A stretch of 64,000 nucleotides of DNA from an uncultured delta proteobacterium (lineage in GTDB: Bacteria > Desulfobacterota > Syntrophobacteria > BM002). Of this stretch, positions 6,772 through 56,956 are shown piece by piece (the stretch's first letter is position 1; each line of letters starts with the position of its first letter). The stretch is from positions 121,299 through 185,298 of the forward strand of contig CAVQGX010000042.1 of the NCBI GenBank assembly GCA_963712115.1. The letters are read 5' to 3'. Below the pieces are notes generated by a model, which was not told the origin of the DNA, did not search any database, and worked only from the letters and a program-made list of their open reading frames with translations. A program made the position numbers and the translations under genes.

Positions 6772-6919
6772 GTCAGCTAAAATGAACTAAAGCGAGCTCA
6801 AGTGTCTAAAATGTCTAAAGTGCCTAAATTTAGGAATTCAAAAAATGAAGATCTACTAGATGACTGACTAAAATCCTCATCTTAATTCCTCAATTCCTTA
6901 ATTCTGCAATCTAAAATCC
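6772..6919. repeat. Intergenic repeat mosaic (9-mer TG(T/C)CTAAA array, AATTCCT and AATCT units)
   Basis: aagtgtctaaaatgtctaaagtgcctaaa; aattcctcaattcctta; aatctaaaatc. Confidence 0.8.
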
Positions 6920-8005
6920 TCAATCCTGGTGATATTTATAGTATGCGGCACAAGTCCCTTCGCTGGAGACCATGCAGGGGCCATATGGATTTGCCGGATT
7001 ACAGCGCTCCCGAAAGAGTGCACATTCTGGTGGGGTGCACACCCCTCGAAGTACTTCGCCACAGCGGCACCCTGGCATCTCCTGCCCAGGGGGGACCCTG
7101 AGGTCATAATGGCTCTCGGCTGCATGGGCAAGATATTTATCCCTCAGTTTCAGGCCGCTCCCAGGGATGGAACCCAGTCCTCGCCATGTGGCATTAGCCG
7201 GCTCAAAAACTTCCTCTATGATTTGTCTAGCTTTGGGGTTTCCTTCCGGTCTAACGCCACGAGTGTATTGGATTTCTACTTCGCAACGGGCCTCTTCCAT
7301 CTGGCTCACCAGCATTTGAATGGACTGTAGGACGTCCACCGGCTCAAAACCACTGATCACGCAGGATTTACCGTACCTATCCACCACGGTTTGGTAGGGG
7401 TTGGTGCCAATGATGGTGGTCACATGCCCCGGACACAGGAAGCCGTCTATGTGCACCTCTTCGGCAGACAAAAGCCCGTCCATTGCTGGAGGCAGCAACT
7501 TGTGCGCCGAGAATACCAGGAAGTTGTCAAGCCCCTCCTTGTGCGCCTGGTGGACCGCAGCTGCAATGGTCGGTATGGTGGTCTCGAACCCGATGCCAAG
7601 CATGACTACGGGTCGATCCCGATGTTGCCGAGCCAACTCCAGTCCATCGAAACTAGCATACACCATGCGCACATCAGCTCCTCGGGCTTTCTCTCGTTGT
7701 AACGAGGAGTCCGAGCCAGGTACCCGCATGAGATCTCCAAAGGTGGCCACCATTACATTAGGCTGCCGACAAAGCAAAATTGCTCTATCAATATCCTCGG
7801 CCGCAGTTACACAGACCGGACAGCCAGGGCCGGAAATCAGAGTGATAGTTTCGGGAAGGAGCTCTTTCAGGCCGGAGCGGAAAATAGCCACAGTGTGCGT
7901 GCCGCAAACTTCCATAAACCGCACCCGCCTGCGGGATTTCTGCTTAATGGCCAGCACTATCTTCTCTGCCAGTTCCGGATCTCTGTATTCATCTTGGTAT
8001 TTCAT
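6920..8005 (-). CDS. hypD: Hydrogenase maturation protein HypD
   Basis: MEVCGTHT, GPGCPVCVT, GFETT, PGHV, GPCMVSSEGTCAAYY. Confidence 0.96.
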   Translation of the reverse strand: MKYQDEYRDPELAEKIVLAIKQKSRRRVRFMEVCGTHTVAIFRSGLKELLPETITLISGPGCPVCVTAAEDIDRAILLCRQPNVMVATFGDLMRVPGSDSSLQREKARGADVRMVYASFDGLELARQHRDRPVVMLGIGFETTIPTIAAAVHQAHKEGLDNFLVFSAHKLLPPAMDGLLSAEEVHIDGFLCPGHVTTIIGTNPYQTVVDRYGKSCVISGFEPVDVLQSIQMLVSQMEEARCEVEIQYTRGVRPEGNPKARQIIEEVFEPANATWRGLGSIPGSGLKLRDKYLAHAAESHYDLRVPPGQEMPGCRCGEVLRGVCTPPECALFRERCNPANPYGPCMVSSEGTCAAYYKYHQD

Positions 8006-8075
8006 GGTCTATGCTCTCCCCCAGCTCGAAAGGAATTATGCCTTTCCAACGGTAAGACGCAATACCATTGTAGGT

Positions 8076-8235
8076 AAACCCGAATATCTAATATCGAAAT
8101 ACTAAACAAATTCAAATTCTCCAAATCCCAATGACCAAAAGTAAAAAAGAGTCTGCTTGTAGAATTCCGTTTTGAACATTGGAAAATTAGGATTTCGAAT
8201 TTGTTTCGTGCTTCGGATTTCGAATTTCGGATTTA
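8076..8235. repeat. ~160-bp imperfect hairpin, copy 2
   Basis: Shares aaacaaattcaaattctccaaatc and ttccgttttgaacattgg with 5530-5688, same orientation. Confidence 0.85.
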
Positions 8236-8286
8236 CAGCATTGGCCAACTGATTATAAGGTGACTAACCGTCTATTACGAGGGTTA

Positions 8287-10557: not shown

Positions 10558-11218
10558 CTACTTCAGCTTTGCGGTCTCTAACCTGTCTCCTGAGCCAGTC
10601 GAACCAGGGATCCAACCCTTCACCTGTGCGGCATGAAACCTCGAAGATCTCTAAATTCGTATTCAGCTGCAGGGCCCGCTCTCTCATTTTCCCCACATCA
10701 CAGTCTACATAAGGTAGCAGGTCAATCTTGTTGATGATTAAAACCCGGGATTGCTGAAACATGAGGGGGTATTTGAGGGGTTTATCGTCTCCCTCTGCAA
10801 CACTAAGGATCATGGCCTTCATGTCTTCGCCCAAGTTGAATTCCGCCGGACACACAAGATTCCCCACGTTTTCAACCATCAGTAGATCCAGTAGTTTCAG
10901 GTCCAAAGCGTCTAAACTGGATTTGATCATGTTGCCGTCCAGATGACAAGATCCGCCAGTGTTGAGCTGTACCACCTGGACTCCTTTCTGCCCTATTCGC
11001 TCAGCGTCATATGAAGACTGTATGTCTCCCTCGATTACGCCAATGCGAATCTCCTGGCGGAGTGCATCGATGGTTCTTTCAAGCAAAGAGGTCTTCCCCG
11101 CACCTGGGCCGCTCATCAAGTTGATGACAAAAAGACCTGCATCTCGAAAAACCCGTCGATTATCCTCGGCCAACCGTTCATTGGCTTCCAAAATATTGCG
11201 TACTACAGGTACCTTCAT
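10541..11218 (-). CDS. hypB: Hydrogenase nickel incorporation GTPase HypB
   Basis: GPGAGKT, CHLD, ENVGNLVCPA, EGDDKPLKYP, NKID; start at MKVPVV (the longer ORF runs through repeat DNA). Confidence 0.95.
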   Translation of the reverse strand: MKVPVVRNILEANERLAEDNRRVFRDAGLFVINLMSGPGAGKTSLLERTIDALRQEIRIGVIEGDIQSSYDAERIGQKGVQVVQLNTGGSCHLDGNMIKSSLDALDLKLLDLLMVENVGNLVCPAEFNLGEDMKAMILSVAEGDDKPLKYPLMFQQSRVLIINKIDLLPYVDCDVGKMRERALQLNTNLEIFEVSCRTGEGLDPWFDWLRRQVRDRKAEVDGTKT

Positions 11219-11279
11219 TTTCCTTGCTCGCTTGTCTCCAGCAATTCTGCGCAGAGTCCTTGGGCAGTGTCTCCACCAC

Positions 11280-11455
11280 GCTTTACTAGGCACTAGGCCC
11301 CAAGAACGAGAAGGCGGAATTCGGAACGCGGAGCGCGGAATGTTTCGACAAAGCAAATCCAAGTAAATCTTTTCTCTAGTTCTGTGATTCCGCGTTCCCC
11401 GCTCCCCGCTTCGAGTTGTAGTGCATAGTGCCTACTGTTTAGTGCTTAGTAGCAG
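11280..11455. repeat. Nested inverted repeat mosaic
   Basis: actaggcactagg ... gcggaattcggaacgcggagcgcggaat ... attccgcgttccccgctccccg ... tagtgcctactgtttagtgcttagt. Confidence 0.75.
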
Positions 11456-11881: not shown

Positions 11882-12013
11882 AGGGTGTCGGGTGTCAGGT
11901 TTCAGGTGTCAGGGAGGAGAAACACAAAAACTGAAACCTGAAACCTCAATCATTGATTAGTCCAGAATTATATTTTGTCACTCCAGTACTCCAATACTCC
12001 ACTGCTCCATTAA
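11882..12013. repeat. TCAGGTG/CTGAAAC hairpin plus TACTCCA array
   Basis: ggtgtcaggtttcaggtgtcagg ... ctgaaacctgaaacct; actccagtactccaatactcc. Confidence 0.8.
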
Positions 12014-12056
12014 TCCGGGAGAAGTGCTTCGCTTCTCTGTCTTTGCCTTGCTATCT

Positions 12057-14192: not shown

Positions 14193-16139
14193 TTACTCCG
14201 CTCCTGCTAGCCAGGAAAGTATAATGCGCCCAGTGTCACGCACATCATAGCCGCCAAGCGCCATCACCTGTTCTTTGAATTCCTGGCTGGCAATCACCTC
14301 AAGAAGCTCCTGCACCAGCGGCTTGTCATAATGTTCAGCTGGAATCACCAGATCGTACCTTTCAGTGGTTACAGGGATGAAATCGAGAGCCAAAGCCTGC
14401 GCTGCTGCGTGAATTCCCATACCCACATCGGCAGTGCCACTCAATATATCCACCGCTACCGCCATGTGAGTATATTCGTCCCGTTCGTAACCTCTTATTT
14501 TAGCAGAATCAATGCCAAGCTGTCCTAGTCGCCAATCTAAAAGGATACGGGTCCCAGATCCTGCTTGCCGATTGACAAAGCTTACTCCATCCCGGGTAAG
14601 ATCTTCCAAACCTTTAATGGATTTGGGGTTACCAGGTGCAACTATCAACCCCTGTTCCCGGTGAACAAGATTAATTAAATAAACCTCTACACCGGACAGG
14701 TAACGATTAATATAGGAAATGTTATATTCGCCGGTATCGGTATCCAGCAGATGGGAGCCGGCCAAATGAGCAGTGGATTTTCTCAGGGCCAGCAGACCAC
14801 CTAAACTTCCAACATTGCTGGAAGCCAGGTTAATTTGAGGGTCACATTTCTTTAATAGGTTGGCAATGAGATCTAGGGTCATGTCATGACTGCCCACTAC
14901 TACCAGGGTGCGCTCAATTCCTCTCCTGCTGGTCAGCAGGCTGACTGCATGTGATTCTGACTCGGTCACACCTTCCACCGTGTCCGGAATTCTCAAAAAA
15001 CCGGTAGCCTGGGTTAATGAGGTGATTGAACCCGCCCCCCTAGCTAGTGGTGTGGCTATGAGCCGCTCACCTACCCTGCCGATATTAACTCGGAGGAATT
15101 CTTCGACTCCAAGTTTGGAAGGGATCTTTTGAGCTGGGTAGGTTTCAACCATCTCGGGCTCTGGCTCGTCCAATCCCTGCATCCGGTAGAGAAGTGGCCG
15201 CACGAACTGTTCCATGCTAATAACAGCGGAAACCGGATAACCTGGGTTGCCGACCACGGGTTTCCCTTTTATGTCGCCCAGAACAGTGGGTTTACCCGGC
15301 ATGATTGCCACACCGTGTACCAGCACTTCTCCCAATTCAGCTATCAGGTTGGCGGTGTGATCCTCAGAGCCCGCAGAGGACCCGGCATTGATAATGATCA
15401 CATCGTATTTCCCTCCAACACCATCCAACAACTCCTGGCGCAGAAGGGCAGGATCGTCCGGGATGATTGGGTGTCGATCACATTTTCCACCCCATTGACG
15501 GACAAGGTTGGCCAGCACCCAGGAGTTGAATTCTACAATCTCACCCGCCGGCACATTCTCCTTGTCCTTTAGGGCTTCGGCCTCCACAAGCTCATTGCCA
15601 GTGGGGATAATCAGCACCTGTGGCCGCTTATAGACCGTTAACTCCAGGACTCCGGCTGCTAAGAGAGCTCCTATGTCGTATGCATTAATCTGGTGGTTCT
15701 GCGGCAAAAGCAGTTCTGTGGCCACGATATCTTCGCCCACCTTGCGGACATTCTGCCACGGATAGGTTGCAGCCTGGATCTCCACGGTCTCCTCATCAAT
15801 CTGGTGTATATTTTCCACCATAATGACGGCATCCGCATCGGCAGGCATGGGCTGGCCCGTATTGATCCACTTGGCATCAGTACCTATTCTGAGCTCCATT
15901 GGCCTTTCCGGCCTGGCACCGAAGGTATGCTCCGCTCTAACCGAAATTCCGTCCATGGCAGCAGAATGAAAAGTTGGAGAGGAAAATCGGGCAAAGATGG
16001 GAGCAGCTGTCACCCGACCGGCTGACTCCACCGTGGCTATCGTCTCAGCGGAGAGCATCTCAGCCAAATTCCAGTGGGCCAGGAAGATGTCTCTCGCCTC
16101 TTTCAGGCTCTTCATTTTCAGATATATCCGACGGGACAT
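14193..16139 (-). CDS. moeA: Molybdopterin biosynthesis MoeA fused to a periplasmic-binding-protein-like domain
   Basis: SAAMDG, PTGNEL, MPGKP, GNPGYP, then GSHD..GSLGGL..VNRQAGSGTR domain. Confidence 0.9.
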   Translation of the reverse strand: MSRRIYLKMKSLKEARDIFLAHWNLAEMLSAETIATVESAGRVTAAPIFARFSSPTFHSAAMDGISVRAEHTFGARPERPMELRIGTDAKWINTGQPMPADADAVIMVENIHQIDEETVEIQAATYPWQNVRKVGEDIVATELLLPQNHQINAYDIGALLAAGVLELTVYKRPQVLIIPTGNELVEAEALKDKENVPAGEIVEFNSWVLANLVRQWGGKCDRHPIIPDDPALLRQELLDGVGGKYDVIIINAGSSAGSEDHTANLIAELGEVLVHGVAIMPGKPTVLGDIKGKPVVGNPGYPVSAVISMEQFVRPLLYRMQGLDEPEPEMVETYPAQKIPSKLGVEEFLRVNIGRVGERLIATPLARGAGSITSLTQATGFLRIPDTVEGVTESESHAVSLLTSRRGIERTLVVVGSHDMTLDLIANLLKKCDPQINLASSNVGSLGGLLALRKSTAHLAGSHLLDTDTGEYNISYINRYLSGVEVYLINLVHREQGLIVAPGNPKSIKGLEDLTRDGVSFVNRQAGSGTRILLDWRLGQLGIDSAKIRGYERDEYTHMAVAVDILSGTADVGMGIHAAAQALALDFIPVTTERYDLVIPAEHYDKPLVQELLEVIASQEFKEQVMALGGYDVRDTGRIILSWLAGAE

Positions 16140-16142
16140 AAG

Positions 16143-16452
16143 AAATGCCTAAAGTGCCTAAAGTGCCTAAAGTTAAGGTAATAGGTTATCGGTCGTATTA
16201 AATCGTTCAAAGTCGTTGAAATCGTTGAAATCGTCGAAATCGCGAATACTCTGAAATCCGAAATTCCAGATCACAAGCCTAGCAAATCTCAGGGCTGTCA
16301 GGTTTTCCTCCGGAGGCGATCAGATGTCAGATGAAGATGACAGCAAAATCTGATCCTGAACACTGAAATCTGGATTCTGGCTCTGCTTCTGGCTTCATGA
16401 CTCCATGTTCTCCATATGCCTCTATGCTCTATGCCTTCTCAAATCCGCAATC
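16143..16452. repeat. Ordered intergenic repeat mosaic between the moeA genes
   Basis: aaatgcctaaagtgcctaaagtgcctaaa, then tcgttgaaa units, then ctatgctctatgcc, then aaatccgcaatc. Confidence 0.85.
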
Positions 16453-20744: not shown

Positions 20745-20921
20745 ATTGGATATTTGGGGAAGCATAGGGCATAGGGCATGGAGCATAGAGTAAGGAGCCA
20801 GGAGTCAGAATCCAGAATTCAGTAAGGACCACTTTCAATTTGATCAGTTTTGTGATTAGTGGTTTTCAGGCCCTATGCCCTATGCCGGGTGGTTTGAGCC
20901 ATTGACGCTATGCGCTTTGCA
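20745..20921. repeat. GCATAGG/CCTATGC hairpin mosaic
   Basis: gcatagggcatagggcatggagcatag ... ccctatgccctatgcc ... ctatgcgctttgc. Confidence 0.75.
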
Positions 20922-30671: not shown

Positions 30672-31454
30672 ATGAAAAAGTTTATTTATATAGGCATCGC
30701 ACTTGTAGTTATTCTTGCAGTAGTACTGGTTATTGGAATATCCAATCTGGGCCCCATAATTAAAACCGCGGTGAACAAATATGGTCCCGCAATGACCAAA
30801 ACAGATTTACGGATTAACGATGTAAGCATTTCTCTCTTTTCTGGTGAGGCCAAACTCAAGGATTTTTACCTGGGCAACCCCAAGGGGTTCAAATCACCTG
30901 AGGCCATGAGTGTAAATGCTATTTATGTGAATGTGGATGAAAAGTCTATAACCCGTGATCCGATTATTATTGACAGAGTCGAGGTTGTTGGCCCCAACAT
31001 CACCTACGAAAAAGTCCAACGTACCGATAACTTCCAAACCATTTTGAATAATGTTAAAAGGAGCGCAGAAACTTCCAAGTCCTCCTCTTCAAGCAAAAAA
31101 CCGTCAAAGGAGTCCGCTGGAAAGAAGCTTGTGATCAGAGACTTCATCATTACGGATGGCAAGGTAAACATGGACGTGAACATGCAAGCTGGCTCCAGCA
31201 TAAGTGCTTCAGCGTCCCTTCCGAAGATTCACCTTAAAAATGTAGGGGAGAAAAGCGGGGGTGCTACTGCCGAAGAAGTTTTTTACATAGTTTTCGCCGA
31301 ACTGTACGATAAGTTAGTCTCCCCTGCCGTGACTGCCACCCTCAACAAAGAGTTGAAGGGGCTCACCTCGCGCATTCCCATAGAAGACGAGGAAACTAAA
31401 AAATCAGTTGAGAAAACAGTCAATCAAACGGTCAAGGGGTTGCTCGGTAAGTAG
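30672..31454 (+). CDS. Membrane-anchored AsmA-like hypothetical protein
   Basis: N-terminal TM helix, LGNPKGF, TDNFQTIL; GGAG RBS. Confidence 0.7.
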   Translation: MKKFIYIGIALVVILAVVLVIGISNLGPIIKTAVNKYGPAMTKTDLRINDVSISLFSGEAKLKDFYLGNPKGFKSPEAMSVNAIYVNVDEKSITRDPIIIDRVEVVGPNITYEKVQRTDNFQTILNNVKRSAETSKSSSSSKKPSKESAGKKLVIRDFIITDGKVNMDVNMQAGSSISASASLPKIHLKNVGEKSGGATAEEVFYIVFAELYDKLVSPAVTATLNKELKGLTSRIPIEDEETKKSVEKTVNQTVKGLLGK

Positions 31455-31457: not shown

Positions 31458-31733
31458 TTTAGATTTGAGATTTTAGATTTAAGATTTGAGAAGGCATAGA
31501 GCATAGGGAAAAGATAGCTGGCAGGAGGCAGCGGTCAGCAGGCAGCCGCAGTTAGAGGTTGGAGGAGCGCTACGCTTTAGGTTGGAGGCAGGTCTTGGCG
31601 GATTTGTAAGAGTTCAGCGATTTATATGGTTTCAACGTTTTGAACGACTTGAACGATTTTAACGACCTCTAACCCATGACCCATTACCTTAACTTTAGGC
31701 ATTTTAGCTCACTTTAGACACTTTAGACATTCA
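31458..31733. repeat. Ordered intergenic repeat mosaic
   Basis: gatttga units, gcatagagcatagg, ggcaggaggcagc, aacgacttg units, tttaggcattttagctcactttagacac. Confidence 0.85.
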
Positions 31734-31748: not shown

Positions 31749-32348
31749 TTATTTTTCCAACTTCTTCAACTCGAGGGCGCAGACAGATGGATCCGGTTTT
31801 TTGTTGATGTCTGACACCTGAATGAATCGGATAATTCCCTCTTTGTCGATTATAAATACGGCCCTTTCTGTAAAGCCGTCAGAACGAAACACGCCATACT
31901 CTTTAGCTACGGTTCCGTGGGGCCAGAAATCAGAAAGTACATGGAACCAAACCGTTCCCATCTCTCTGGTCCAAGCATGGAGAGTGGGGATGTTATCAAC
32001 CGTGATTCCTATGAGCACTGCATCAGTTTCATCGAAAACGTTTTTTACGATGCTGTAACCTGGAAACTGTTGCGAGCACACGGGTGTCCAAGCTGCCGGG
32101 ACAAAAGATAGCACCACATTCTTTTTCCCCAAAAACTGGCTGAGGGCAATCTTCTTCCCCGAAACTGAAGGGAGAACGAAGTCCGGAGCCGGCTCCCCTA
32201 CCTTGACCTTCAAAACGCTGTCGATTGGCTTCAATCTGCCCAGATCATAAATATCTTTTTTGGATACCTCTGAAAAAACCAAGGTGGAACCGTACAGTAA
32301 AATCATAATCACCAGTAGAACAGCACTTGATTTGGTAAAATTTTCCAC
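31749..32348 (-). CDS. Peroxiredoxin (AhpC/TSA family), probably exported
   Basis: FVPAAWTPVC peroxidatic motif (TGC Cys), LSDFWPHG, ERAVFIIDKEG. Confidence 0.85.
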   Translation of the reverse strand: MENFTKSSAVLLVIMILLYGSTLVFSEVSKKDIYDLGRLKPIDSVLKVKVGEPAPDFVLPSVSGKKIALSQFLGKKNVVLSFVPAAWTPVCSQQFPGYSIVKNVFDETDAVLIGITVDNIPTLHAWTREMGTVWFHVLSDFWPHGTVAKEYGVFRSDGFTERAVFIIDKEGIIRFIQVSDINKKPDPSVCALELKKLEK

Positions 32349-32391: not shown

Positions 32392-32596
32392 AATCCAGTA
32401 GCAGTAGCCAGTAGCCAGTAGTCAAAAAGAAATCACTCTTGCTTGCTTTTCTCCTAAATTCTGGACTTCTGGCTCCTATCTCCATTCTCTATGCCTTCCC
32501 ACATCCCAAATCTCAAATTCGAAATTCGAAATTCGCAATTACTTCCCTATGCCCCGTGCCCTATGCCTTGCCATCCCAATCCGCAATCCGCAATCT
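32392..32596. repeat. Intergenic repeat mosaic
   Basis: gtagcca units ... ctggacttctggct, aaattcg units, ccctatgcc, aatccgc units. Confidence 0.8.
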
Positions 32597-35055: not shown

Positions 35056-35202
35056 GGTTGTCGCTGTGTTCGCCTCTCACTTTTTGCTTGACCGTAGCAC
35101 ACAATGCTTGGGAAGGTCAAAAAGTCCAAAATCTCAAATCTCACATCCCAAATCCGCAATCCGCAACCTAAAATCTCAAATCTACAATCTGCCTTCTGAC
35201 CT

Positions 35203-35374
35203 CCGACCTCTGACCCCTACCAATTACAACAAATGACAGCGCAGCGTAATGACCTAATGACGCCGAAGGCTAATGACAGAGTAGCCTGATCATGGCAAGG
35301 TCAACTTGAGCGAACCGCGGCTGCCTGCTGTCAGTTGCCTCCTGCCGGCTGTCTTACCCCCATGCTCTATGCCT
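35203..35374 (+). repeat. 172-bp dispersed element, copy 1
   Basis: Identical by eye to 44161-44332; reverse-complement copy at 50902-51063. Confidence 0.9.
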
Positions 35375-35609
35375 CCCCAAATCCCAAATCCGAAATCCGA
35401 AGTCCCAAATCATAAACCTTCCCTCTGCGCTCTCCGCGCTCTCCGCGGTAAATGATTATCTTGCCTGAAAGGACATTTATTATTACTATTGCCTTTGGGG
35501 GGCTCGTGCTAGATAATGACTTTGATTCAATGAGCTTTCAACCTCCGAAGAGGTTGGAGGAGAAGTGATAACTGCTGCTTTCTCCGGGTGGTGCTAAAGG
35601 AGATTCAGA

Positions 35610-36252
35610 ATGAATAGGTGTATGTTCTTTTCCATTCTGGTTGCAATTGTGTTGCTGTTTCCCAATAATGCCTCAGCGGACAAGGCTCCCCGTAAAATAG
35701 CAGGGACTTACCCTGGGAGAGCAGATTTCCATGTTTGTCGACCTTGTACAAATGGAGACCTCCATAGTACTCCGTGATCGACAGTATTTGCGCGAAGTAA
35801 ATATTCGGGAAATCGACGGCTATAAAAGCGGCACCGTGGACTTTGGCAACTGTTCCAAGCCGGGGCAGATTGTTCGGATCAAGTTAAAATATGAATACGA
35901 GGACAAGAATTTTTACGATGAACTTCTGGAAAAATTCAACAAGAAGTTTGGAGAACCTGATGAGTGGCGTGGCGACCCCTTTCACGTCATCATAGCCTGG
36001 AAATGGTCTTTCAGGGATGAGAACGGCAACAGCATCAGTCTGATCCTCCAGCACAGCAGGGACGAGGAATATAAGTGGGGAAACTCGATTAAGTTGACAA
36101 ACACCACCCTAATTGAACAAGAACGTCTATGTTACGAGAAGAGGAATCAGGAGGAAGGAGGTAGCAAAGAGAGCAAGTCCGCCTCCAAAGAGGCGCAAGC
36201 TGTCAGAAAAAGATTATCAACTTTTTATTCCCCAGTAAAATGTCTAAAATGA
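35610..36252 (+). pseudogene. Exported hypothetical protein, frameshifted (possibly sequencing error)
   Basis: Signal peptide from ATG 35610 (AAGGAG RBS) shifts frame at GCAGGGACT ~35705 into ORF 35731-36252; probable second shift near 36190. Confidence 0.65.
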
Positions 36253-36595
36253 ACTAAAATGTGCTAAAGTGCCTAAAATTAAGGACTTAAGAGCTTTCAA
36301 AATAATCTCGCAAATAGCGATCTTATTCCCAAAATCCGCTTTGCTCCTGGCGCGATTCGCTTCGCGGTAATTTGCACCAACAGAAGTACCTGATTTCGTC
36401 ATTTGAGTCCTCACTGCCCTCCCTTTTGGTGTATTCGGCAGAGACGACGAAAGACGAACAATGTCAATTGCAAATTGCTTCGTCCGCTCCTCCAACTCCT
36501 TTGCAAACTTCTTAATATTCCTCGCCATTAGCCCCTACTCTTTAGCTCATTTTAGACACTTTAGACACTTTAGGCATTTTAGGCATTTTAGATAC
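36237..36595 (-). mobile_element. Four-helix-bundle cassette 2 with inverted 9-mer tandem arms
   Basis: Left arm aaatgtctaaaatgaactaaaatgtgctaaagtgcctaaa; right arm tttagacactttagacactttaggcattttaggcattttag; ORF between them. Confidence 0.7.
36244..36528 (-). pseudogene. Four-helix-bundle (23S rRNA IVS / Avd-like) protein, 3' part deleted
   Basis: LEERTKQFA...QMTKSGTSVGANYREANRARSKADF.NKIAICE, then runs into flank DNA. Confidence 0.85.
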
Positions 36596-36596
36596 T

Positions 36597-38016
36597 TCAC
36601 ATCAACGCCCTGGCGGCGGCTCGGGCAAGCTCTAGCAGGTATTGGGGAAATACCCCAAGGACCAGCATTGCCGTTACCAGTGCTCCCGTGAGCATTTTGG
36701 TGGGAATGGACACTTGCAGGCGGGGCAAAGATTGATCCGACTCCAGGAGGTAGGCGGCTCTCACTACCAGAATGTAGTAGTAGAGAGAGATCACCACATT
36801 GATCATGGCGATGAGCACCAGGGTGAAATAACCCTTCTTCATGGCAGCGGCAAAGACAAGGAATTTACCGGTGAAGCCAATGGTCGGCGGAATACCGGCC
36901 AGACCAAAAACTCCCAGCATCAGAGCCATGGCCAGCATGGGGGAGCGACGATGTAACCCGGCCAGTTGGGCGATCTTCAGATCGCTGCCGTCATAGGCCA
37001 CTTTGACCACCACCAAGAAGCAGGTGAACTTCATTATCAGATATGCCACGGCATAAAAGATGGCGCCGGCATATCCACTCTGATTCATGCTGAGAATCCC
37101 GATAAGGACGTAGCCGGCGTGGGAGATACTGGAGTAGGCCAGCAACCGTCTTCATGTCTTTCTGCACGATTGCCACTAGATTTCCCAGAGTCATGGAAGC
37201 GATGGAGAGAGTAACCAGTACGTGAACAAGATAGATGCTGCTGCCGCTGCTTAGGGCAACCATTCGGGTGAGGATAGCCACTGCCGCCACCTTCGAGGCT
37301 GTGGCAATGTAAGCGGTGACCTGATTTGCTGCTCCTTGGTAGGCGTCAGGAGCCCAAAAGTGAAAGGGGAAAACGGCTAGCTTAAAGAAAAACCCGCACA
37401 AGGTAAGGAGCAGGCCGATTATGGCGGCGGGCCTTCCTATGACGGAGGGAAGTACTGTTATAATCTCAGCCACATAAGTGGTGTGAACAACACCATAGAG
37501 AGAGGCTATGCCAAATAGCATCACCGCAGAAGTAAAGGCTCCCACCAGAAAGTACTTGATACCCGACTCCACATGAACTCCGTAGCCCTTCCGGAGTGGA
37601 ACCAGAAGGTAAAGGGAGTAACTGGAGAGTTCCAGGGCCACGTAGATCGTCAGCAACTCGACACTGCTGACCAGCAGCATCATGGCCAAGGTGCAGGTGG
37701 TCATTAGAAGGTAGAATTCTGGATGGTGGTTCTCCTGAATCCCCTTGAGTTCAGAGCAGATGCAGATTACCAGGAAAAAACCTGTGGCTAGGACGAGTTT
37801 GAAGACCTGAGAAAATAGGTCCACCCGATAGACATTAAAGAATAGAGTTCCCTCCAGCTTGACTGAGGCCAGACAAACCACCACGCCTACAGTGGCCAGA
37901 AGGAGAGCGATGAAAAAATCCCTTTTGGGATTGGACTGCAACACCATAGCCAGGCAGAGGAATACACCTATCATCAACATGAAATACAGTTCAGGTATGA
38001 ACAAGCCCCATTGCAT
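36597..38016 (-). CDS. nuoN: NADH-quinone oxidoreductase subunit N (one frameshift near 37149)
   Basis: [30 protein letters not shown], then [22 protein letters not shown]; removing one base restores DMKRLLAYSS. Confidence 0.88.
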
Positions 38017-38037
38017 AGGTGCAATCCACTACTGGGT

Positions 38038-38592
38038 AAAATGTCTAAAGTGCCTAAAGTTATTTTGCAGTGCCTAAAATGTTCTAAAATGTGCAAAAAT
38101 GCCTAAAATTAAGGACTTAAGAGCTTTCAAAATAATCTCGCAAATGTCAGTCAAAGCCACGTTCCTATTTTTTTCCGATAGAAGTGAAAATAGCCAGTAG
38201 TTCACTACATTCATCATAATGAGGCTGCAATTCATCCCAGGACTTCCATCCTACTCCTGCAATTACTTCTAGCCATTACTGAGTTTCACTAGCCTCACTT
38301 TCGCAAATAGCAATCTTGTTCCTAAAATCCGCTTTGCTTCTGGCCCGGTTAGCTTCACGGTAATTGGCCCCAACAGATGTCCCTGCCTTGGTTAATTGAG
38401 TTCTAATGGTCCTTCCTTCCGGCGTATTTGGCAAACTCGATGAAAGACGGATGATATCGATTGCAAATTGCTTGGTTCGCTTCTCTAACTCCTTTGCAAA
38501 CTTCTTAATATCTCTCGTCACAATCTGACGCCTTTATCTCGTTATAGACACTTTAGACATTTTAGACACTTTAGTTCATTTTAGGCATTTGA
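38038..38592 (-). mobile_element. Four-helix-bundle cassette 1 with inverted 9-mer tandem arms
   Basis: Left arm aaatgtctaaagtgcctaaa...tgcctaaaatgttctaaaatg; right arm tagacactttagacattttagacactttagttcattttaggcattt. Confidence 0.7.
38165..38521 (-). pseudogene. Four-helix-bundle (23S rRNA IVS / Avd-like) protein with one internal TAA
   Basis: 118 codons: ...GTSVGANYREANRARSKADFRNKIAICESEASETQ*WLEVIAGVGWKSWDELQPHYDECSELLAIFTSIGKK; TAA at 38276-38278 where Tyr (ETxYWL) is expected. Confidence 0.88.
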
Positions 38593-38606
38593 AATGCCGG
38601 TGGCCA

Positions 38607-39512: not shown

Positions 39513-39685
39513 AATGTCTAAAATGAACTAAAGTGTCTAAAATGCCTAAAATGATCTAAAATCCGAAAGCCGCAATCCGACATCTGTCTTCTGTCCTCTG
39601 ATCTCTGATTTCCGACCTCTGACCTCTGACTCCTGCCTCCAACCTAAAGCGTAGCGTTCCTCCAACCGCGACTGCCTGCTGTCTC
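39513..39685. repeat. Intergenic repeat mosaic
   Basis: 9-mer array, aatccg units, tctgacc units, and a 36-bp block that is the reverse complement of 31558-31593 (1 mismatch). Confidence 0.8.
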
Positions 39686-41329: not shown

Positions 41330-41475
41330 GGTGGGCACCACCCACCGATAGATTTTCCCTGGCTCGTGTTAGATCTGTGGAGTATTGGAGTGTTGGAGTG
41401 TTGAGGAATGCCTCTAAGACATTGTATTTCTTCGCTTCTTCCATTACTCCATTACTCCAGTACTCCATTACTCCG
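41330..41475. repeat. REP-like GGTGGGCACCACCCACC plus GGAGTATT/TACTCCAT hairpin
   Basis: ggagtattggagtgttggagt ... ccattactccattactccagtactccattactcc. Confidence 0.8.
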
Positions 41476-44019: not shown

Positions 44020-44034
44020 GTCAGATCAAATGTC

Positions 44035-44335
44035 TCAAGTGAGCTAAAATGTCTAAAGTGCCTAAAATTTGAAATCTGCAATCAGAAAGCAAAGAATCCA
44101 GTAGCCAGTAGCCAGTATTAATTTCGCAATTCGAAATTATTAATCCCTGATCTCTGACTTCCGACCTCTGACCCCTACCAATTACAACAAATGACAGCGC
44201 AGCGTAATGACCTAATGACGCCGAAGGCTAATGACAGAGTAGCCTGATCATGGCAAGGTCAACTTGAGCGAACCGCGGCTGCCTGCTGTCAGTTGCCTCC
44301 TGCCGGCTGTCTTACCCCCATGCTCTATGCCTACA
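44035..44335. repeat. Repeat mosaic containing copy 2 of the 172-bp element (44161-44332)
   Basis: 9-mer array, gtagcca units, then identity with 35203-35374. Confidence 0.9.
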
Positions 44336-44378
44336 CAAAGGAAAACAGATCCGCCTTAGGCGGAACAACTGACAAAAT

Positions 44379-45650: not shown

Positions 45651-45902
45651 AAATGCCTAAAGTGTCTAAAATGTTCTAAAATGCCTAAAGTTAAGGTAAG
45701 GGGTCGTTCAAATCGTTCAAGTCGTTCAAATCGCAAAAGCTTAAGTAGCCAGGACTCAGTAGCCAGAATCCAGAGAGGCATACGGCTCAGGGCTCAGGGC
45801 ACAAGGAAAAAAATTTAGTCTTCTATTGCCTTGTGCCTTGCGCCTTATGCCTTGCGCCTATCATCAATTTGCAATCTACAATCTAAAATCTTAAATCTAC
45901 AG
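45651..45902. repeat. Ordered intergenic repeat mosaic
   Basis: aaatgcctaaagtgtctaaa, tcgttcaaa units, ggctcagg/gccttgc hairpin, aatct units. Confidence 0.85.
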
Positions 45903-46386: not shown

Positions 46387-46635
46387 TAAAATGAGCTAAA
46401 ATGTACTAAAGTTTGGTTATAGGTTATGGGTTATTGGTCGTTTAAATCGTTAAAATCGTCCATCACAGAGGTCAGAAGTCGGAGATCAGAGATCAGCTTT
46501 ACCCCTGACCTCAGACATCTGATCTCTGACCTCTGAGTTCTACTTGCTGCCTGCTATCCGCTGTCTGCTGCCTGCTGAAACTCTATGCTCTATGCCTTTC
46601 CAAATCCGCAATCCGAAATCCCAAATCCGAAATCC
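46387..46635. repeat. Ordered intergenic repeat mosaic; inverted counterpart at 51135-51322
   Basis: 46462-46534 is almost the exact reverse complement of 51250-51322. Confidence 0.85.
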
Positions 46636-46637: not shown

Positions 46638-49600
46638 TTACCTATCAATATCCGGGAGAATGTAGTCAATGGATCCGATGGTGGCGATCAAGTCGGCTAT
46701 ACTCTCACCCACAGCCATAAGCGGCATTACTTGTACATTTGCAAACCCCGGTGAGCGTATACGGGTGCGGTACGAATAACCGAGTCCGTCACTCACAACA
46801 TAATAGCCCTGCTCTCCCCTGGGGATCTCGCAGGATGCGTAAGCCTCCCCTCTGGGGATCTTGGCTCCTCGGGTCACGTTGATAAAGTGATGTATCAGGC
46901 TCTCTATATCTTTCAACATGTCCGACCTTTGGGGGATCACATAGCGATAATCATCTGTCACGTAGCGCCCAGATGGCATCTGCTCCGCGGCTTGCTTGAT
47001 AATTTTCAAGCTTTGGCGCATTTCCTCGACCCTCACCAGATAGCGAGCGTAGCAATCTCCCTCGGTGGCAGTGGGAATCTCAAAATCAAAGTTTTCGTAG
47101 CCTGAGTAGGGAAACTTTTTCCGTAAATCCCACTCCAGGCCGCAAGCCCGCAAGTTAGGACCGCTTACACCCCAATCAATTGAGTCCTCCAAAGAAATGC
47201 GACCGATGCCTTGAGTTCTAGCTTTAAAGATGGGGTTTTTGGTTGTCAGAGCTTCGTATTCTTTGAGTCGATTAGGAAATATCTTGACGAAATGATCAAC
47301 AGCTTCTTTCCAGCCCTCCGGCAAATCCGCGGCAACGCCTCCCAGCCGGAACCACGAGGGATGCAATCGACCTCCGGTTATGAGCTCAACTATGTCAAGA
47401 AGGATTTCCCGCTCTCTAAAGGTATAGAAATTAGGGGTCATGGCCCCCAAGTCGTGAGCGAAGGTAGCAAAAAAGACGAGATGATTGCTTAAGCGGAAAA
47501 ACTCGCTGAGCATAACCCTGATCACCTGGGCCCGCTCCGGAACTTCTATACCAGCCAGAGTTTCAACGGCCATGACGTAGGGAAGATTGTTGGCTGCCCC
47601 AGCCAAATAATCCACACGATCTGTATATGGAATGTACTGGTTCCAGGTTTGTCTTTCGCCAATTTTTTCCGCCGCCCGATGATGGTAACCAATGTCCATG
47701 TCCATTTCGGTTATTTCTTCACCGTTGAGGGAAACTATATAGCGCATCAAACCGTGGGTACTTACATGGTGGGGACCGATGTTTAGTATGAGCTCGTGTT
47801 CTCTACCCTCTCTTTTGATGTAGATACCGCCGTCCAAGGGTTGGAGCCTCTGGGCATCGGCAAGAGTGTAAGGAGTCATTTCCGTGGCTCGACCTGGATG
47901 ACTCTTTCTCAGGGGATGGCCCTCCCAGTCGTGGGGCATAATAAGTCTCCGCAGGTTCGGATGGCCTTCGAACCTTATGCCAAACATGTCGAATACTTCC
48001 CGCTCGTACCAGTTTGCAGAGGGCCAGATATCAGTCACACTTTGAGCTAAAGGATCTTGCCTTTTAATCCCACTTTAAGCCGCAACCTGGTGGCGGGCAA
48101 AAATATTTGAATTGTTATAATTTTAAGTTTAGGATTTATGAATAAATAGGAGGTAGAATATTGGTGGCAGTGGGAATCTCAAAATCAAAGTTTTCGTAGC
48201 CTGAGTAGGGAAACTTTTTCCGTAAATCCCACTCCAGGCCGCAAGCCCGCAAGTTAGGACCGCTTACACCCCAATCAATTGAGTCCTCCAAAGAAATGCG
48301 ACCGATGCCTTGAGTTCTAGCTTTAAAGATGGGGTTTTTGGTTGTCAGAGCTTCGTATTCTTTGAGTCGATTAGGAAATATCTTGACGAAATGATCAACA
48401 GCTTCTTTCCAGCCCTCCGGCAAATCCGCGGCAACGCCTCCCAGCCGGAACCACGAGGGATGCAATCGACCTCCGGTTATGAGCTCAACTATGTCAAGAA
48501 GGATTTCCCGCTCTCTAAAGGTATAGAAATTAGGGGTCATGGCCCCCAAGTCGTGAGCGAAGGTAGCAAAAAAGACGAGATGATTGCTTAAGCGGAAAAA
48601 CTCGCTGAGCATAACCCTGATCACCTGGGCCCGCTCCGGAACTTCTATACCAGCCAGAGTTTCAACGGCCATGACGTAGGGAAGATTGTTGGCTGCCCCA
48701 GCCAAATAATCCACACGATCTGTATATGGAATGTACTGGTTCCAGGTTTGTCTTTCGCCAATTTTTTCCGCCGCCCGATGATGGTAACCAATGTCCATGT
48801 CCATTTCGGTTATTTCTTCACCGTTGAGGGAAACTATATAGCGCATCAAACCGTGGGTACTTACATGGTGGGGACCGATGTTTAGTATGAGCTCGTGTTC
48901 TCTACCCTCTCTTTTGATGTAGATACCGCCGTCCAAGGGTTGGAGCCTCTGGGCATCGGCAAGAGTGTAAGGAGTCATTTCCGTGGCTCGACCTGGATGA
49001 CTCTTTCTCAGGGGATGGCCCTCCCAGTCGTGGGGCATAATAAGTCTCCGCAGGTTCGGATGGCCTTCGAACCTTATGCCAAACATGTCGAATACTTCCC
49101 GCTCGTACCAGTTTGCAGAGGGCCAGATATCAGTCACACTTTGAGCTAAAGGATCTTGCCCTTTTAATCCCACTTTAAGCCGCAACCTGGTGGCGGGCTC
49201 GAAGGACAGCAGATTGTAAACCAGAGTATAATCCGGGTAGTTCTGGCGATTCCTGCGAGTAGATTCATCAACAGCAGTAAGATCCTCTAAACGTTGGTAC
49301 CGTGGGGTGGCCTCCTGTTTGAGGAATTTAATCATCTCTTTGAGCCGCTCTTCCTCCACCTGAAAGGTAAGCATGTCAGAGGTTTGCTCCGTCTGCTTCA
49401 CACTGTCGCTGAACCTTTGTTGAAGAGTTTTGGCCAGACTATTGTCACCCTCACTTAACTCGATTCGTCTCGACGGTGGCGTCCACATTAAATCCGAGCG
49501 GCTGTCCCAGAATCCAGGCGGCACTGAGGAAGTTCCCCGTATGGCAGTTCCTTGCATTCCGGGCCCCCGAGGATCTCTAGACTTTGTTTGGCCGTCAACC

Positions 49601-50901: not shown

Positions 50902-51323
50902 GCATGGGGCATAGGGGTAAGACAGCTGGCAGGAGGCAACTGACAGCAGGCAGCCGCGGTTCGCTTAAGTTGACCTTGCCATGATTAGGCTACTCTGTCA
51001 TTAGCCTTCGGCGTCATTAGGTCATTAAGCTGCGCTGTCATTTGTTGTAATTGGTAGAGGTCAAAATCCAAAATTCAGGAAAAAAGCAATCAAGAGTAAT
51101 TTCTTTTCAACTACTGGCTACTGGAATCTCTGATTGCGGATTTGGGATGTGAGATTGCGGATTGCGGATTTGAGAAGGCATAGAGCATAGGGCATGGAGC
51201 ATGGGGGAAAAGACAGCTGGCAGGAGGCAGCTAACAGCAGGCAGCAAGTAGAGGTCAGAGATCAGATGTCTGAGGTCAGGGTTAAAGCTGATCTCTGATC
51301 TCCGACTTCTGACCTCTGTGATT
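50902..51323. repeat. Large mosaic: inverted copy 3 of the 172-bp element plus inverted copy of the 46462-46635 block
   Basis: Reverse-complement matches with a few substitutions and indels. Confidence 0.85.
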
Positions 51324-51594
51324 GAATTAACTGCCGTTTATGTTTAGAATTTAGTCTTGGACTCTTCCTTGACATCCGTTGCCGCCTGCAGCAATCTGAG
51401 TACAATTAAAAGATTCAGGAAACCGGAGCCCAATTCCAAAGGGATGGGCACTGAACAGACTGAAGCGAGCTCGAACAATACATGAATTGAGGTATTTAGG
51501 AATTCAGAATTTATGGTTTGATGACCTTAATATTAGTTTGATCATTATTTACGAATTGACTAATTCTCTAATTCCCTAATTCTCGTCGTTAAGG

Positions 51595-52371: not shown

Positions 52372-52471
52372 ATTTTAGATTGCGGATTTGGGATGCTTGA
52401 TCTGTTATGGTTATTTTAAATAATTTAGACACTTTAGGACATTTTAGACATTTTAGCTCACTTTAGGCACT
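52368..52471. repeat. GATT-unit array followed by TTTAG(A/G)CA 9-mer array
   Basis: tagattttagattgcggatttgg ... tttagacactttaggacattttagacattttagctcactttaggcact. Confidence 0.8.
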
Positions 52472-52490
52472 TCATAAGGGTGAAAAAACT

Positions 52491-55223: not shown

Positions 55224-55452
55224 GCAGCAGACCGCGGACAGCTGGAGGACAGAAGACGGAAGTAAGAGGTCAGATTGGGGATTTGGGATGTGAGATGTGA
55301 GATTTCGAATTTCGGGATTGAGGGATTGGGGAATTGGAGAATTAAGAGATTAGGCTTCCTTCTTTTTCCAATCCGTGAATTCCTTAATCCCTGAATTCCT
55401 AAATTTTTAGGCATTTTAGCTCACTTTAGGCACTTTAGACATTTTAGGCACT
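55224..55452. repeat. Intergenic repeat mosaic
   Basis: gattt units, gggattggggaattgg/aattccttaatccct hairpin, tttaggcattttagctcactttaggcactttagac. Confidence 0.85.
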
Positions 55453-55468
55453 CGAAGGTGGAGAAACC

Positions 55469-56725
55469 ATGTTGCTAGAAATTAAAGTCCCAAGCGTGGG
55501 AGAATCTGTAACCGAAGCTACCTTGGCCCAGTGGTACAAAAAAGAAGGCGACCAGGTGCGCAAGGGTGAACTCCTTTTCGTACTCGAGACCGACAAGGTC
55601 ACCCTTGAGATAGAAGCCGAGGCCGATGGGGTTTTGAAAATATCAAAATCGGAGGGCGAGACCATACCAATCGGTGGAATTGTCGGCACAATTGATACGG
55701 AGGCCGCCCCGGAAGCAGTGGAAGAGGTTGCCCCCGCTGAGGCGGTAGAGCCGCCCCCGGCAGCTCCGGCACCACCTGCCGAACCACCGCCGGCAGAGCC
55801 GGCCGCTGAAATCCCTTTAGCAGCAAAGCCAGTTCTACCCCCCTCAGTCCGCAGACTTGTGGCCGAGAGAAACTTGGATGCTTCGAAGATAACGGGCACC
55901 GGGCCTGGAGGGCGAATCACCAAAGGTGATGTAATTCTCTATCTGGAGCAAGCAGCGGTGGCAGTACCCAGTGTGGTTCCGGCACCACAGCCATCTTTGC
56001 CCCAGGAGGTTGCTCCTGCAATTGAAGAGTCCATTACTCGCAAGCCTATGAGCCAGATAAGGCAGCGAATTGCCGCCCGTCTGCTAGAAGCAAAGCAAAA
56101 TACTGCCATGCTCACTACCTTCAATGAAATTGACATGACCAGGGTCCAGGAGATTCGCGCTCATTACAAGGAACCTTTCCACAAAAAGTATGGAGTTAGG
56201 CTTGGCATCATGTCTTTCTTTATCAAGGCGTGTGTGGAGGCCTTGATGGAATTTCCCGAGTTAAACGCCTACATACAAAACAAGGACATCATCTATCACA
56301 ACTACTATCACCTGGGCGTTGCCATTGGTGGTGAACGTGGCCTGGTGGTCCCGGTGATTCGGGATGTGGACAAACTCAGCTTCGCCCAGTTGGAGCAGGC
56401 CATTATAGACTATGTAAAGAAGATCCAGGAAAACCGCCTCGAACTTGCCGACCTCGAGGGCGGCACTTTTACCATCACAAACGGCGGCGTGTTTGGCTCG
56501 CTGCTGAGCACTCCGATTCTAAACATTCCTCAGAGCGGCATTCTGGGCATGCACAAGATCGAGAAACGCCCGGTGGTGTTAGACGGTCAGATAGTAGTGC
56601 GGCCAATGATGTATGTGGCCCTGACCTACGATCACCGCATTGTAGATGGAAGACAAGCAGTAACATTCTTGGTGCGCATCAAGGAGTTCATCGAGGAACC
56701 AGACCGGATTATGATAGAAATTTAG
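55469..56725 (+). CDS. sucB: Dihydrolipoyl succinyltransferase E2
   Basis: Lipoyl ETDKV, GTGPGGRITKGDV, AMLTTFNE, YDHRIVDG. Confidence 0.95.
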   Translation: MLLEIKVPSVGESVTEATLAQWYKKEGDQVRKGELLFVLETDKVTLEIEAEADGVLKISKSEGETIPIGGIVGTIDTEAAPEAVEEVAPAEAVEPPPAAPAPPAEPPPAEPAAEIPLAAKPVLPPSVRRLVAERNLDASKITGTGPGGRITKGDVILYLEQAAVAVPSVVPAPQPSLPQEVAPAIEESITRKPMSQIRQRIAARLLEAKQNTAMLTTFNEIDMTRVQEIRAHYKEPFHKKYGVRLGIMSFFIKACVEALMEFPELNAYIQNKDIIYHNYYHLGVAIGGERGLVVPVIRDVDKLSFAQLEQAIIDYVKKIQENRLELADLEGGTFTITNGGVFGSLLSTPILNIPQSGILGMHKIEKRPVVLDGQIVVRPMMYVALTYDHRIVDGRQAVTFLVRIKEFIEEPDRIMIEI

Positions 56726-56741
56726 TCGCCGTCCGTTGTTC

Positions 56742-56920
56742 GGGCATAGGGCATGGAGCATGGGGCATAGGGAAGGAATTTCGAATTGCGGATTGCGAAA
56801 TTTGAAATTGTCTCGTTGCGATTTGAAAGATGTGAACGATTTTTACGTTTTGAACGACTTCAACGATTTTAACGACCCATTACCTTAACTTTAGACACTT
56901 TAGGCATTTTAGGCATTTTC
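56742..56920. repeat. Intergenic repeat mosaic
   Basis: ggcatagggcatggagcat, aatttcg/attgcg units, aacgacttc units, tttagacactttaggcattttaggcatt. Confidence 0.85.
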
Positions 56921-56956
56921 GTTAATGAGCCAAACCTCAACATGGGATAGAAAAAA

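Follow-up and report, generated by a model that had tools for sequence, protein, structure and literature searches.

The DNA analysed here (the window) is a stretch of 64,000 nt from an uncultured delta proteobacterium of the Syntrophobacteria (contig CAVQGX010000042.1, positions 121,299 to 185,298). It is gene-dense, with hyp, moeA, nuo and suc operons whose gene names match Pfam, and many of its spacers carry tandem arrays of 7-10-nt units; Rfam, at gathering thresholds, gave no match anywhere in it. One unit, TTTAG(G/A)CA(C/T) (or TTTAGRCAY; the TTTAG family), is found 40 times on both strands where 2.2 copies are expected, the maximum in 30 Markov simulations being 5, and these copies group in 13 clusters. 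In two places the window also holds a broken gene for a four-helix-bundle protein, with (GTGYCTAAA)n at its 5′ side and (TTTAGRCAY)n at its 3′ side. We consider it very probable that the repeats are the arms and the debris of small promoterless mobile cassettes, built as (unit)n-cargo-(reverse-complement unit)n.

The two genes are on the minus strand, and so are their arms. Cassette 2 lies between nuoK and nuoN, in the region 38017-38606. Its gene (38165..38521; TIGR02436/PF05635) has 118 codons with an in-frame TAA at codon 82, and is preceded on the mRNA by a 5′ arm of GTGYCTAAA/ATGYCTAAA units (38545..38590), which in the folded RNA pairs with the (TTTAGRCAY)n 3′ arm (38037..38109). The latter ends 24 nt ahead of the nuoN ATG, i.e., the TTTAG array of nuoN is the 3′ arm of this cassette. 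The RNA folds into a long stem made of both arrays with the open reading frame (ORF) in the loop (z −2.3, none of 100 shuffles being as stable). Cassette 1 comes after nuoN, its 5′ arm (36540..36597) following the nuoN stop immediately. Codons 1-74 of its gene (36244..36528) match the family, the remainder having disappeared in a deletion which, with a short direct repeat as its site, fused the gene to a 3′ flank common with cassette 2, and its 3′ arm (36236..36279) faces a convergent ORF. The lesions in both cargo genes may be real decay or assembly error. The initial annotation gave the unit a single orientation on the mRNA strand; the opposite one is seen at 36540-36597 and 38545-38590, as the 5′ arms of these two cassettes, whose four-helix-bundle genes that annotation had overlooked. 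A 5′ arm (e.g., 36551-36597) reads as a stop and then a start codon every 9 nt, with one frame open, whilst the 3′ arm carries stops; to judge from this pattern, the 5′ arm is possibly a termination-reinitiation signal for the promoterless gene. At the site of cassette 2 (38017-38606), nuoL and nuoM are missing between nuoK and nuoN, which may be due to loss, relocation or collapse between similar cassettes.

The cargo belongs to a well-defined family. The two window genes score 85.5 and 50.6 bits on TIGR02436 (cut-off 24), gene 1 scores 38.7 on PF05635 (cut-off 33.8), and the closest named relatives of the protein are labelled Syntrophobacteria, Syntrophobacterales and Desulfobacterales. The structure was modelled on P0007, an intact relative 92% identical to gene 2, and has four helices (pLDDT 92.9), with template-modelling (TM) scores of 0.86 to 2RLD (BT0352) and 0.80 to 2GSC (XCC0516). 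Database relatives often start with MPKMSKVSK, which is the translated upstream array. The median dN/dS of 0.11 (58 non-independent pairs) means that the protein is under purifying selection, and it is predicted that it probably binds the arms of its own cassette. The profile finds 11594 clusters at 50% identity, and a phage search returned two weak matches.

Modules were called with hand-written patterns for 19 unit families, which miss degenerate arms and which replaced a de novo periodicity detector that was too strict (269 arrays in 1.06 Mb). One of the 85 module matches, all families included, is inside a host gene. The TTTAG array is the final module on the mRNA strand in 10 out of 10 co-directional spacers that contain it, ending 2-77 nt before the ATG (the array of nuoE is degenerate); these are the same ten genes, seven on the minus and three on the plus strand, for which the initial annotation had placed it last before the start codon. 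Equally borne out is the claim that orientation flips with the gene strand (the minus-strand nuo, hyp and moeA genes versus the plus-strand suc genes), and GC skew follows the gene strand too. Replication-strand bias, already discounted in that annotation, is unlikely, since none of the 79 related cassettes described below is antisense to both of its neighbours and polarity flips with gene strand inside the 20-kb loci L033 and L061; it was rejected as the cause of polarity.

Taking all families together, 5′-type arms stand ahead of 3′-type arms in 57 pairs and behind them in 2 (0 of 20000 permutations as extreme), the 5′ or 3′ sign of five families (A, C, E, J, K) having been assigned by hand, without a paired hairpin. 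We think with good confidence that arms come in this order, 5′ ones first and 3′ ones last, because they are the ends of cassettes. Fine order is looser: GATT is before GCATAG four times and after it twice, and GAGGTCA is before GATT three times and after it once. GATT, thought earlier to come typically first after the upstream stop, leads 5 of the 10 TTTAG spacers, and the other five are led by GCATAG, GAGGTCA or the TTTAG complement. G-C skew is higher in the first than in the last third of most array spacers; the AAATC-first family is an exception, and ‘G-rich first’ is therefore not universal.

Related cassettes in other genomes

A genome scan confirmed at least 541 relatives of the protein among at least 607 pattern matches, and 79 loci, 62-91% identical, were kept. 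Their assemblies are titled Desulfobacterota, Planctomycetota, Bacteroidota, Calditrichaceae, Acidobacteriota and Auribacterota, i.e., about six phyla. Two or more 5′-type units lie within 200 nt upstream of the gene in 70 of these loci and the reverse type in one, 3′-type units are found within 200 nt downstream in 67, and both arms in 63, the background being 89 of 6937 random windows. The first arm unit comes a median of 4.5 nt after the host stop (n = 68; 10 nt or less in 48 of these), the last one a median of 25 nt before the next ATG (n = 59), and the cassette spans a median of 482 nt. With a simple ORF caller, the upstream neighbour was sense at 66 loci, antisense at 6 and missing at 7 (65, 10 and 4 downstream); Pfam checks of the 14 flagged loci changed this to 71, 2 and 6 upstream and, downstream, to 70 sense, 4 antisense, 1 ambiguous and 4 missing. 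The 69 loci with both neighbours represent 55 distinct gene junctions. The two arms of a cassette have 9.0 9-mers in common, versus 4.6 with the arms of other cassettes (0 of 20000 permutations). TTTAGRCAY arrays represent the 3′ arm of a cassette about 480 nt long, which begins at the host stop codon and runs in the sense of the operon.

In a FastTree tree of the loci, which excludes five frameshifted ones, a Planctomycetota copy (L037) falls inside a Desulfobacterales clade, and near-identical cassette proteins (L003, L008) occur in metagenome-assembled genomes (MAGs) titled Desulfobacteraceae and Calditrichaceae; both placements may represent recent transfer or mis-binning.

Other lineages of the protein have other units. 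Four more distant family members in the flanks carry other arrays, and, by eye, heptamer arrays other than those of the TTTAG family lie beside the gene in 14 of 14 distant plasmid homologues (14 of 30 matches having been examined). Eleven of these plasmid cassettes are sense to both neighbours and one to its sole listed neighbour. In a small FastTree tree of 23 proteins (L092 left out, units and clades compared informally), six phyla are represented in the 9-mer clade (support 1.0). Cyanobacteria and Chloroflexota come together both in the GATTT/AAATC clade (0.95) and in the GATGAAG clade (0.87), and Cyanobacteria and Bacteroidota do so in the CAGT/TAACTG clade (0.99); two cassettes with different units are found in one host (L083, L084). 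In this tree the repeat unit tracks the protein clade and not the host phylum. The polarity of the units can also be inverted, as in L033, where a four-helix-bundle gene sits between an AAATC arm first and a GGATTT arm second.

These data bear on the possibility that polymerase slippage makes the 7-9-nt repeats locally in each spacer, with composition or stop-codon content filtering their strand and position. Copy number does vary and units are degenerate, i.e., slippage acts on existing arrays, and yet a single unit accompanies one protein clade across about six phyla, two units coexist in one host, non-periodic linkers are shared (see below) and the arms are mutual complements. We find slippage a most improbable origin of the arrays, and since the link between protein and unit contradicts it, it was rejected. 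The best explanation is that the cassettes carry, for the most part, a four-helix-bundle protein from the 23S rRNA intervening-sequence/Avd-like family, each protein lineage having its own 7-9-nt unit.

A different cargo is present in L075, a PDDEXK_3 gene of the GxxExxY type (15581-15949, minus strand). Together with its own inverted array (ACAGAT/ATCTGT) it sits in a lexA-dinB operon, immediately ahead of an orphan TTTAG arm. This arrangement is the predicted intermediate and was counted in favour of cassettes; the PD-(D/E)XK nuclease fold of its protein could supply catalysis. No other cargo gene held up in an automated search, which missed this one (it was found by eye), and the PD-(D/E)XK protein has no second match in the loci or the window. 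By analogy, the GCATAG, GCAG, GAGGTCA, AACGAYTT and GGAGTA families are taken to be putative arms of other cassette lineages.

Several side observations concern units and sites. Further 9-mer families with arm behaviour are CTCCGCGCT/CTCTGTG and CACGAAA/TTTCGTG (window 35423-35447; L004 980-1125; L007 8597-8737; downstream flanks of L029, L030 and L013). Plasmid cassettes are often in helicase, methylase, DUF1156/Swt1 or type I restriction operons (L080, L083, L084, L088, L092, L093), and in L082 and L085 cassettes adjoin cas1 or sit between cas1 and cas2. The family figures among the CRISPR associations listed in PMC10910872, and this reported association may reflect insertions near cas1/cas2.

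Emptied, orphaned and copied arms

L001, an orthologous nuoE-nuoI operon, carries an intact cassette between nuoD and nuoE. At exactly this junction the window shows a stack without gene (46387..46635, minus strand), consisting of GATT, GCATAG and GCAG 5′ arms, an empty GAGGTCA hairpin (46466-46536), AACGAYTT, TAACC and a degenerate TTTAG 3′ arm. The other four spacers that L001 and the window have in common contain different modules, two of them retaining the TTTAG end. At the DNA level, the cassette of L001 and that of the window, which is at another junction, are 86% identical, as compared to 71-78% for the nuo genes, an indication of movement since the divergence of the hosts. In L002 and L023 one and the same junction is seen, respectively, filled and with an internal deletion. 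Cassettes lose their gene by internal deletion, leaving empty hairpins, and one junction holds different families across genomes.

Further empty hairpins of the window are those of the GGAGTAAT 8-mer family between nuoG and nuoH (41378..41474, minus strand; fold z −4.8), of GGTTTCA/TGACACC, with a GGAGTA 5′ arm, before hypA (11884..12009, minus; fold z −4.2), of the GCATAG family after metE, with an inner GCCAG-family 3′ arm (20762..20886, minus), and one with an AAATC arm first and a GGATTT arm second (5537..5688, no strand assigned), which has a second copy at 8101-8234.

Repeated invasion of one junction and the loss of single arms would leave 5′ arms at the left and 3′ arms at the right. 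As called, the 44 gene-free spacers of the TTTAG family comprise 26 with both arms (the 5′ one first in 26 of 26), 14 with the 3′ arm only and 4 with the 5′ arm only. On revision by hand, L039 and L064, whose 5′ arm is degenerate, and L061, a remnant, joined the paired class, L075 joined the orphan 3′ arms, and L078 and L018 were discarded as mis-calls, giving about 12 orphan 3′ arms versus 2 orphan 5′ arms, or 5 if three sub-threshold cases are included. The co-directional spacers of the window have nine orphan 3′ arms of the family and no orphan 5′ arm.

Some of these figures would also suit a host regulatory code, in which the modules are initiation or stability elements with an RNA-binding reader (which might be the four-helix-bundle protein), and selection sets their strand and order. 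Orphan TTTAG 3′ arms are unstructured (z +0.95, +1.09 and −0.63) and in excess, and 8 of the 10 window genes behind a TTTAG arm are without a Shine-Dalgarno-like word by a crude pattern. Among the relatives such a word is found behind 8 of 59 TTTAG arms, as opposed to 131 of 439 in the background, and in none of 22 cases with a gap of 15 nt or less; the same idea is raised for TAACTGA of Beggiatoaceae in PMC4679880. Against it, orthologous nuo spacers from genomes with 71-78% identical genes have almost entirely different modules, different families swap at one junction, one complete stack is flanked by convergent genes, and both cargo genes of the window are broken. We regard such a code as improbable as the general explanation; orphan 3′ arms of cassettes, nevertheless, may have been kept for a role in translation or mRNA processing, and may be locked in as translation-initiation regions.

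The stacks themselves are mosaics, in which whole-block copying would produce a recurring exact order. The stack from moeA to moeA-PBP (16143..16452, minus strand) has GATT, GCATAG and GCCAGAA and, further on, AACGAYTT, a TAACC linker and an orphan TTTAG 3′ arm 5 nt before the ATG, and the same two compound blocks recur at 31458..31731 (plus). The latter stack, cited in the initial annotation (as 31458-31733) among the recurrences of its module order, has no start codon after it, as it lies between an asmA-like gene (plus strand, ending at 31454) and a convergent peroxiredoxin gene (minus, ending at 31749). Exact chains share non-periodic linkers, GATT, GCATAG and GCAG forming one block and AACGAYTT, TAACC and TTTAG another. 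In addition, a composite of 160-187 nt occurs in three copies, 95-98% identical, each sense to the downstream gene and ending inside arrays: in the nuoF-nuoG stack (44028..44339, minus; copy at 44153-44339), which ends in an orphan TTTAG 3′ arm, in the stack upstream of the tetratricopeptide (TPR) gene (35125..35447, minus; copy at 35195-35381), and in the stacks upstream of a hydrolase gene (50902..51325, plus; copy at 50902-51063). The last region also has a GATT-GCATAG-GCAG-GAGGTCA hairpin block 78% like that of nuoD-nuoE. Shared linkers and near-identical composites make the recurring order a matter of copies and not of independent events: the exact order recurs because compound blocks were copied whole. 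The fine order noted in the initial annotation is variable and its recurrences are not independent; a fixed module order as an independent assembly rule was rejected, block copying being sufficient to explain the recurrence.

Metagenome assembly could in principle fabricate both the recurring order and the near-identical blocks, and the window does have suspicious features, namely a stretch of 1036 nt duplicated at 99.9% identity, frameshifted nuoN and nuoG genes, and the missing nuoL and nuoM. Most block copies in the window differ, however, by 14-25%, and the cassette anatomy is seen again in 79 independent assemblies as well as on complete plasmids from cultured strains, so we give assembly artefacts hardly any weight as the source of the pattern. 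As to the lesions as such, the duplication (47064-48098 and 48163-49198) is in tandem within nuoBCD, which it divides into two overlapping ORFs, and is probably an assembly artefact. The frameshift of nuoN is at about 37000-37145 and that of nuoG, relative to its L001 orthologue, at about 42750, and an adenylate-cyclase/TPR gene is broken (59115-61801); so many lesions suggest sequencing error or a decaying operon.

Among the remaining stacks, those on the minus strand are hypD-hypE (6772..6927; GATT and GGAATTGA 5′ arms, orphan TTTAG 3′ arm), terB-peroxiredoxin (32395..32595; GATT, GCATAG and GAATT 5′ arms, TACTGGC 3′ arm), nuoI-nuoJ (39513..39681; GCAG/GGTTGGA, GAGGTCA and GATT 5′ arms, orphan TTTAG 3′ arm) and nuoE-nuoF (45651..45901; GATT 5′ arm, empty hairpin of GCATAG type, TACTGGC 3′ arm, AACGAYTT and a TTTAG 3′ arm 2 nt before the ATG). 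On the plus strand, an orphan TTTAG 3′ arm ends the spacer before sucA (52372..52472; GATT 5′ arm) and the stacks of sucA-sucB (55250..55452; GAGGTCA and GATT 5′ arms, hairpin of GGAATTGA type) and sucB-lpdA (56742..56919; GCATAG and GAATT 5′ arms, AACGAYTT block). The GAGGTCA-family units at 39579-39630 are of GACAGA type and resemble the GACAGAT heptamer of the Coxiella rRNA intervening sequence (IVS). Elsewhere in the window, a non-periodic repeat of 60-155 nt, about 81% identical, without Rfam match and unrelated to the arrays, lies downstream of small genes (61956-62015, 62457-62612 and 63271-63434), and at 2379-4557 there is dnaA with a divergent spacer of 769 nt, where the replication origin may be.

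Movement, known systems and meaning

How cassettes move is less certain than what they are. Tentatively, the most likely route would be recombination at the DNA level between arrays, both within genomes and after horizontal transfer. Sense orientation would be kept because the gene needs host read-through and because an antisense insert, being untranslated, would have a polar effect on the operon. All direct traces are at the level of DNA, namely micro-homology deletions, duplications across the gene and block copies ending inside arrays. In 15 of 92 loci the gene is bracketed by direct repeats of 35-146 nt (up to 107 nt at 99%), a pattern that either recombination with a resident array or a target duplication would produce. 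For the comparison with insertion sequences and miniature inverted-repeat transposable elements, which are defined by target-site duplications of fixed length and precise terminal inverted repeats, the observation available is these direct repeats of variable length.

The same cassettes might instead move through RNA, with RNase III cutting the stem-loop out of the mRNA and an Avd-like pentamer binding it and recruiting a reverse transcriptase in trans for insertion at translation stops of transcribed operons. Polarity would in that case arise at insertion itself, as the initial annotation supposed, while the reading of the repeats as arms would be unaffected. In its favour are the fold match to the Avd protein of diversity-generating retroelements (DGRs) and the score of one relative on the Pfam bAvd-like family, Avd being described as essential for reverse transcription and as binding an RNA stem-loop (10.1101/2023.10.23.563531), as well as the RNase III excision of the rRNA-borne relative (PMC4990558), the tight placement at stop codons and the lack of any cassette antisense to both neighbours among the 79. 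However, no reverse transcriptase fits into a cassette of this span (the flanking genes were not scanned for one), 2 of the 14 plasmid loci are antisense insertions, recombination of DNA accounts more simply for block copies and long duplications, and fold likeness at 11% identity is no proof of shared function. We therefore see an RNA route as possible but rather unlikely. The earlier suggestion of insertion through RNA or coupled to transcription, or of selection for a role in the mRNA, stands as far as coupling to the transcribed strand is concerned; its modules are better seen as cassette arms and copied blocks than as independent units.

A number of observations weigh against cassettes as the general source of the repeats. 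Random arm loss predicts equal numbers of orphan arms and the excess of 3′ ones needs an extra bias. Two plasmid cassettes (L085, L089) are antisense to both neighbours. The 79 loci were selected on the protein, the Pfam re-check covered antisense calls alone, and the uncorrected same-strand background is itself 541 of 724. Several junctions are common to up to six genomes, and much inheritance is therefore vertical, whilst cross-phylum MAG placements may include mis-binning. Only in 54 of the 77 genome loci and in 8 of the 14 plasmid loci does the duplex of upstream and downstream arms reach z ≤ −3. For the GCATAG, GCAG, GAGGTCA, AACGAYTT and GGAGTA families no cargo gene came to light; AACGAYTT arrays were confined to the window among 80 sequences scanned, and they are putative arms. 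Finally, neither a mobilising enzyme nor a clean pre-insertion site was found.

The closest known element is the IVS in helix 45 of 23S rRNA, which, as described for Coxiella and Leptospira in PMC4990558, has a terminal stem, GACAGAT heptamers before its S23p ORF and excision by RNase III; the idea that this ORF serves mobility is also cited there. Both elements carry the same protein family, as a promoterless ORF in the loop of a terminal inverted-repeat stem of about 430-480 nt with tandem heptamers before it, the ORF decays by deletion, and the distribution is patchy and horizontally spread. The cassettes, unlike it, are at stop-to-start junctions of protein-coding operons (dozens of junctions), have tandem arrays as both arms with one unit per protein lineage, leave mosaic remnants, and encode a protein under purifying selection. 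The cassettes lie outside 23S rRNA genes, the window having no Rfam match and the flanks being nuoK, nuoN and other protein genes, and membership among rRNA IVSs was rejected on the site in protein-coding operons.

Mosaics of repeats are familiar from the repetitive extragenic palindromic (REP) system, in the form of bacterial interspersed mosaic elements. Like the cassettes, REP sequences and their associated tyrosine transposases (RAYTs) include a gene between inverted repeats (the REPtron), hairpins that lack the gene, single halves of dimers and expression by read-through (PMC3733652), besides mosaic clusters in spacers; the cassettes differ in lacking an HUH tyrosine transposase and in having 7-9-nt tandem units instead of 20-40-nt palindromes tagged GTAG/CGTC. 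Their cargo is PF05635 (once PDDEXK_3), their units are of 7-10 nt, and no transposase or reverse-transcriptase domain was found among the 53 window ORFs, so REP/RAYT membership was rejected. With DGRs the cassettes have in common the four-helix-bundle fold (TM 0.72 to 4DWL and 0.75 to 8UB7, weaker than the matches above and at 11% identity), PF05635 being described as homologous to Avd in PMC10053308; as they have no reverse transcriptase, template repeat or variable repeat, DGR membership was rejected as well, on the span of about 480 nt and the 53 window ORFs (the flanks of the 79 loci were not scanned for a reverse transcriptase). The element is best filed as an IVS-type variant living in mRNA junctions, outside rRNA IVSs, REP/RAYT and DGRs by their defining features.

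Strand-polarised heptamers are on record, namely GGGAATC in Xanthomonas and GGGGAYT in Nostoc (PMC4692102, which describes the same strand rule and inverted pairs, and repeats generally not found with mobile elements, and in a table of which a GGGAATC array stands directly before XCC0516), and TAACTGA before start codons in Beggiatoaceae, Cyanobacteria and Bacteroidetes (PMC4679880, where the exchange mechanism is called not obvious and a repeat-binding protein as mobile element is raised). The arrays of the window likewise lie on one strand after stops, with the complement before starts. They resemble the published heptamers in the G-rich array after the stop, the frequent inverted pairs and the overlap with the ribosome-binding region, and similar units flank four-helix-bundle genes in L080, L089, L090 and XCC0516; the window differs in its other units, 8- and 9-mers included, and in its many families per spacer, and those papers, in their accessible parts, name no carrier. 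The terms S23, four helix, intervening, TIGR02436 and GxxExxY do not occur in the supplement of PMC4679880 (MacGregor), nor does the four-helix-bundle family in the available text of 10.64898/2026.10.21.760802. No paper linking the arrays to this gene family at operon junctions was found in the mostly open literature, and a prior description is possible.

In conclusion, strand polarity, inverted pairs, mosaic order and patchy spread across phyla would have one explanation if the repeats are arms of cassettes, and this would give the abundant 7-9-nt intergenic repeats an origin that the accessible parts of the published papers on the strand rule leave unnamed. On the practical side, such arrays cause assemblies to break or collapse where genes of an operon adjoin, give rise to false N-terminal extensions (MPKMSK) and may explain spurious gene-operon ‘associations’ such as that with cas1-cas2. 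It is tempting to go further and speculate, doubtful as this still is, that these are very widespread enzyme-less mobile elements, where each Avd-like (or PD-(D/E)XK) lineage would read its own RNA repeat and insert at translation stops via a reverse transcriptase in trans, with decayed arms as the source of most 7-9-nt intergenic arrays in bacteria (the heptamers of Xanthomonas, Cyanobacteria and Beggiatoaceae among them) and the IVS of 23S rRNA as one such insertion. The four-helix-bundle family already has a known function in DGRs; if each of its lineages reads its own short repeat, it would be a natural library of sequence-specific nucleic-acid binders, and the set of protein-repeat pairs could, if this is true, be as large as the number of clusters given above suggests.

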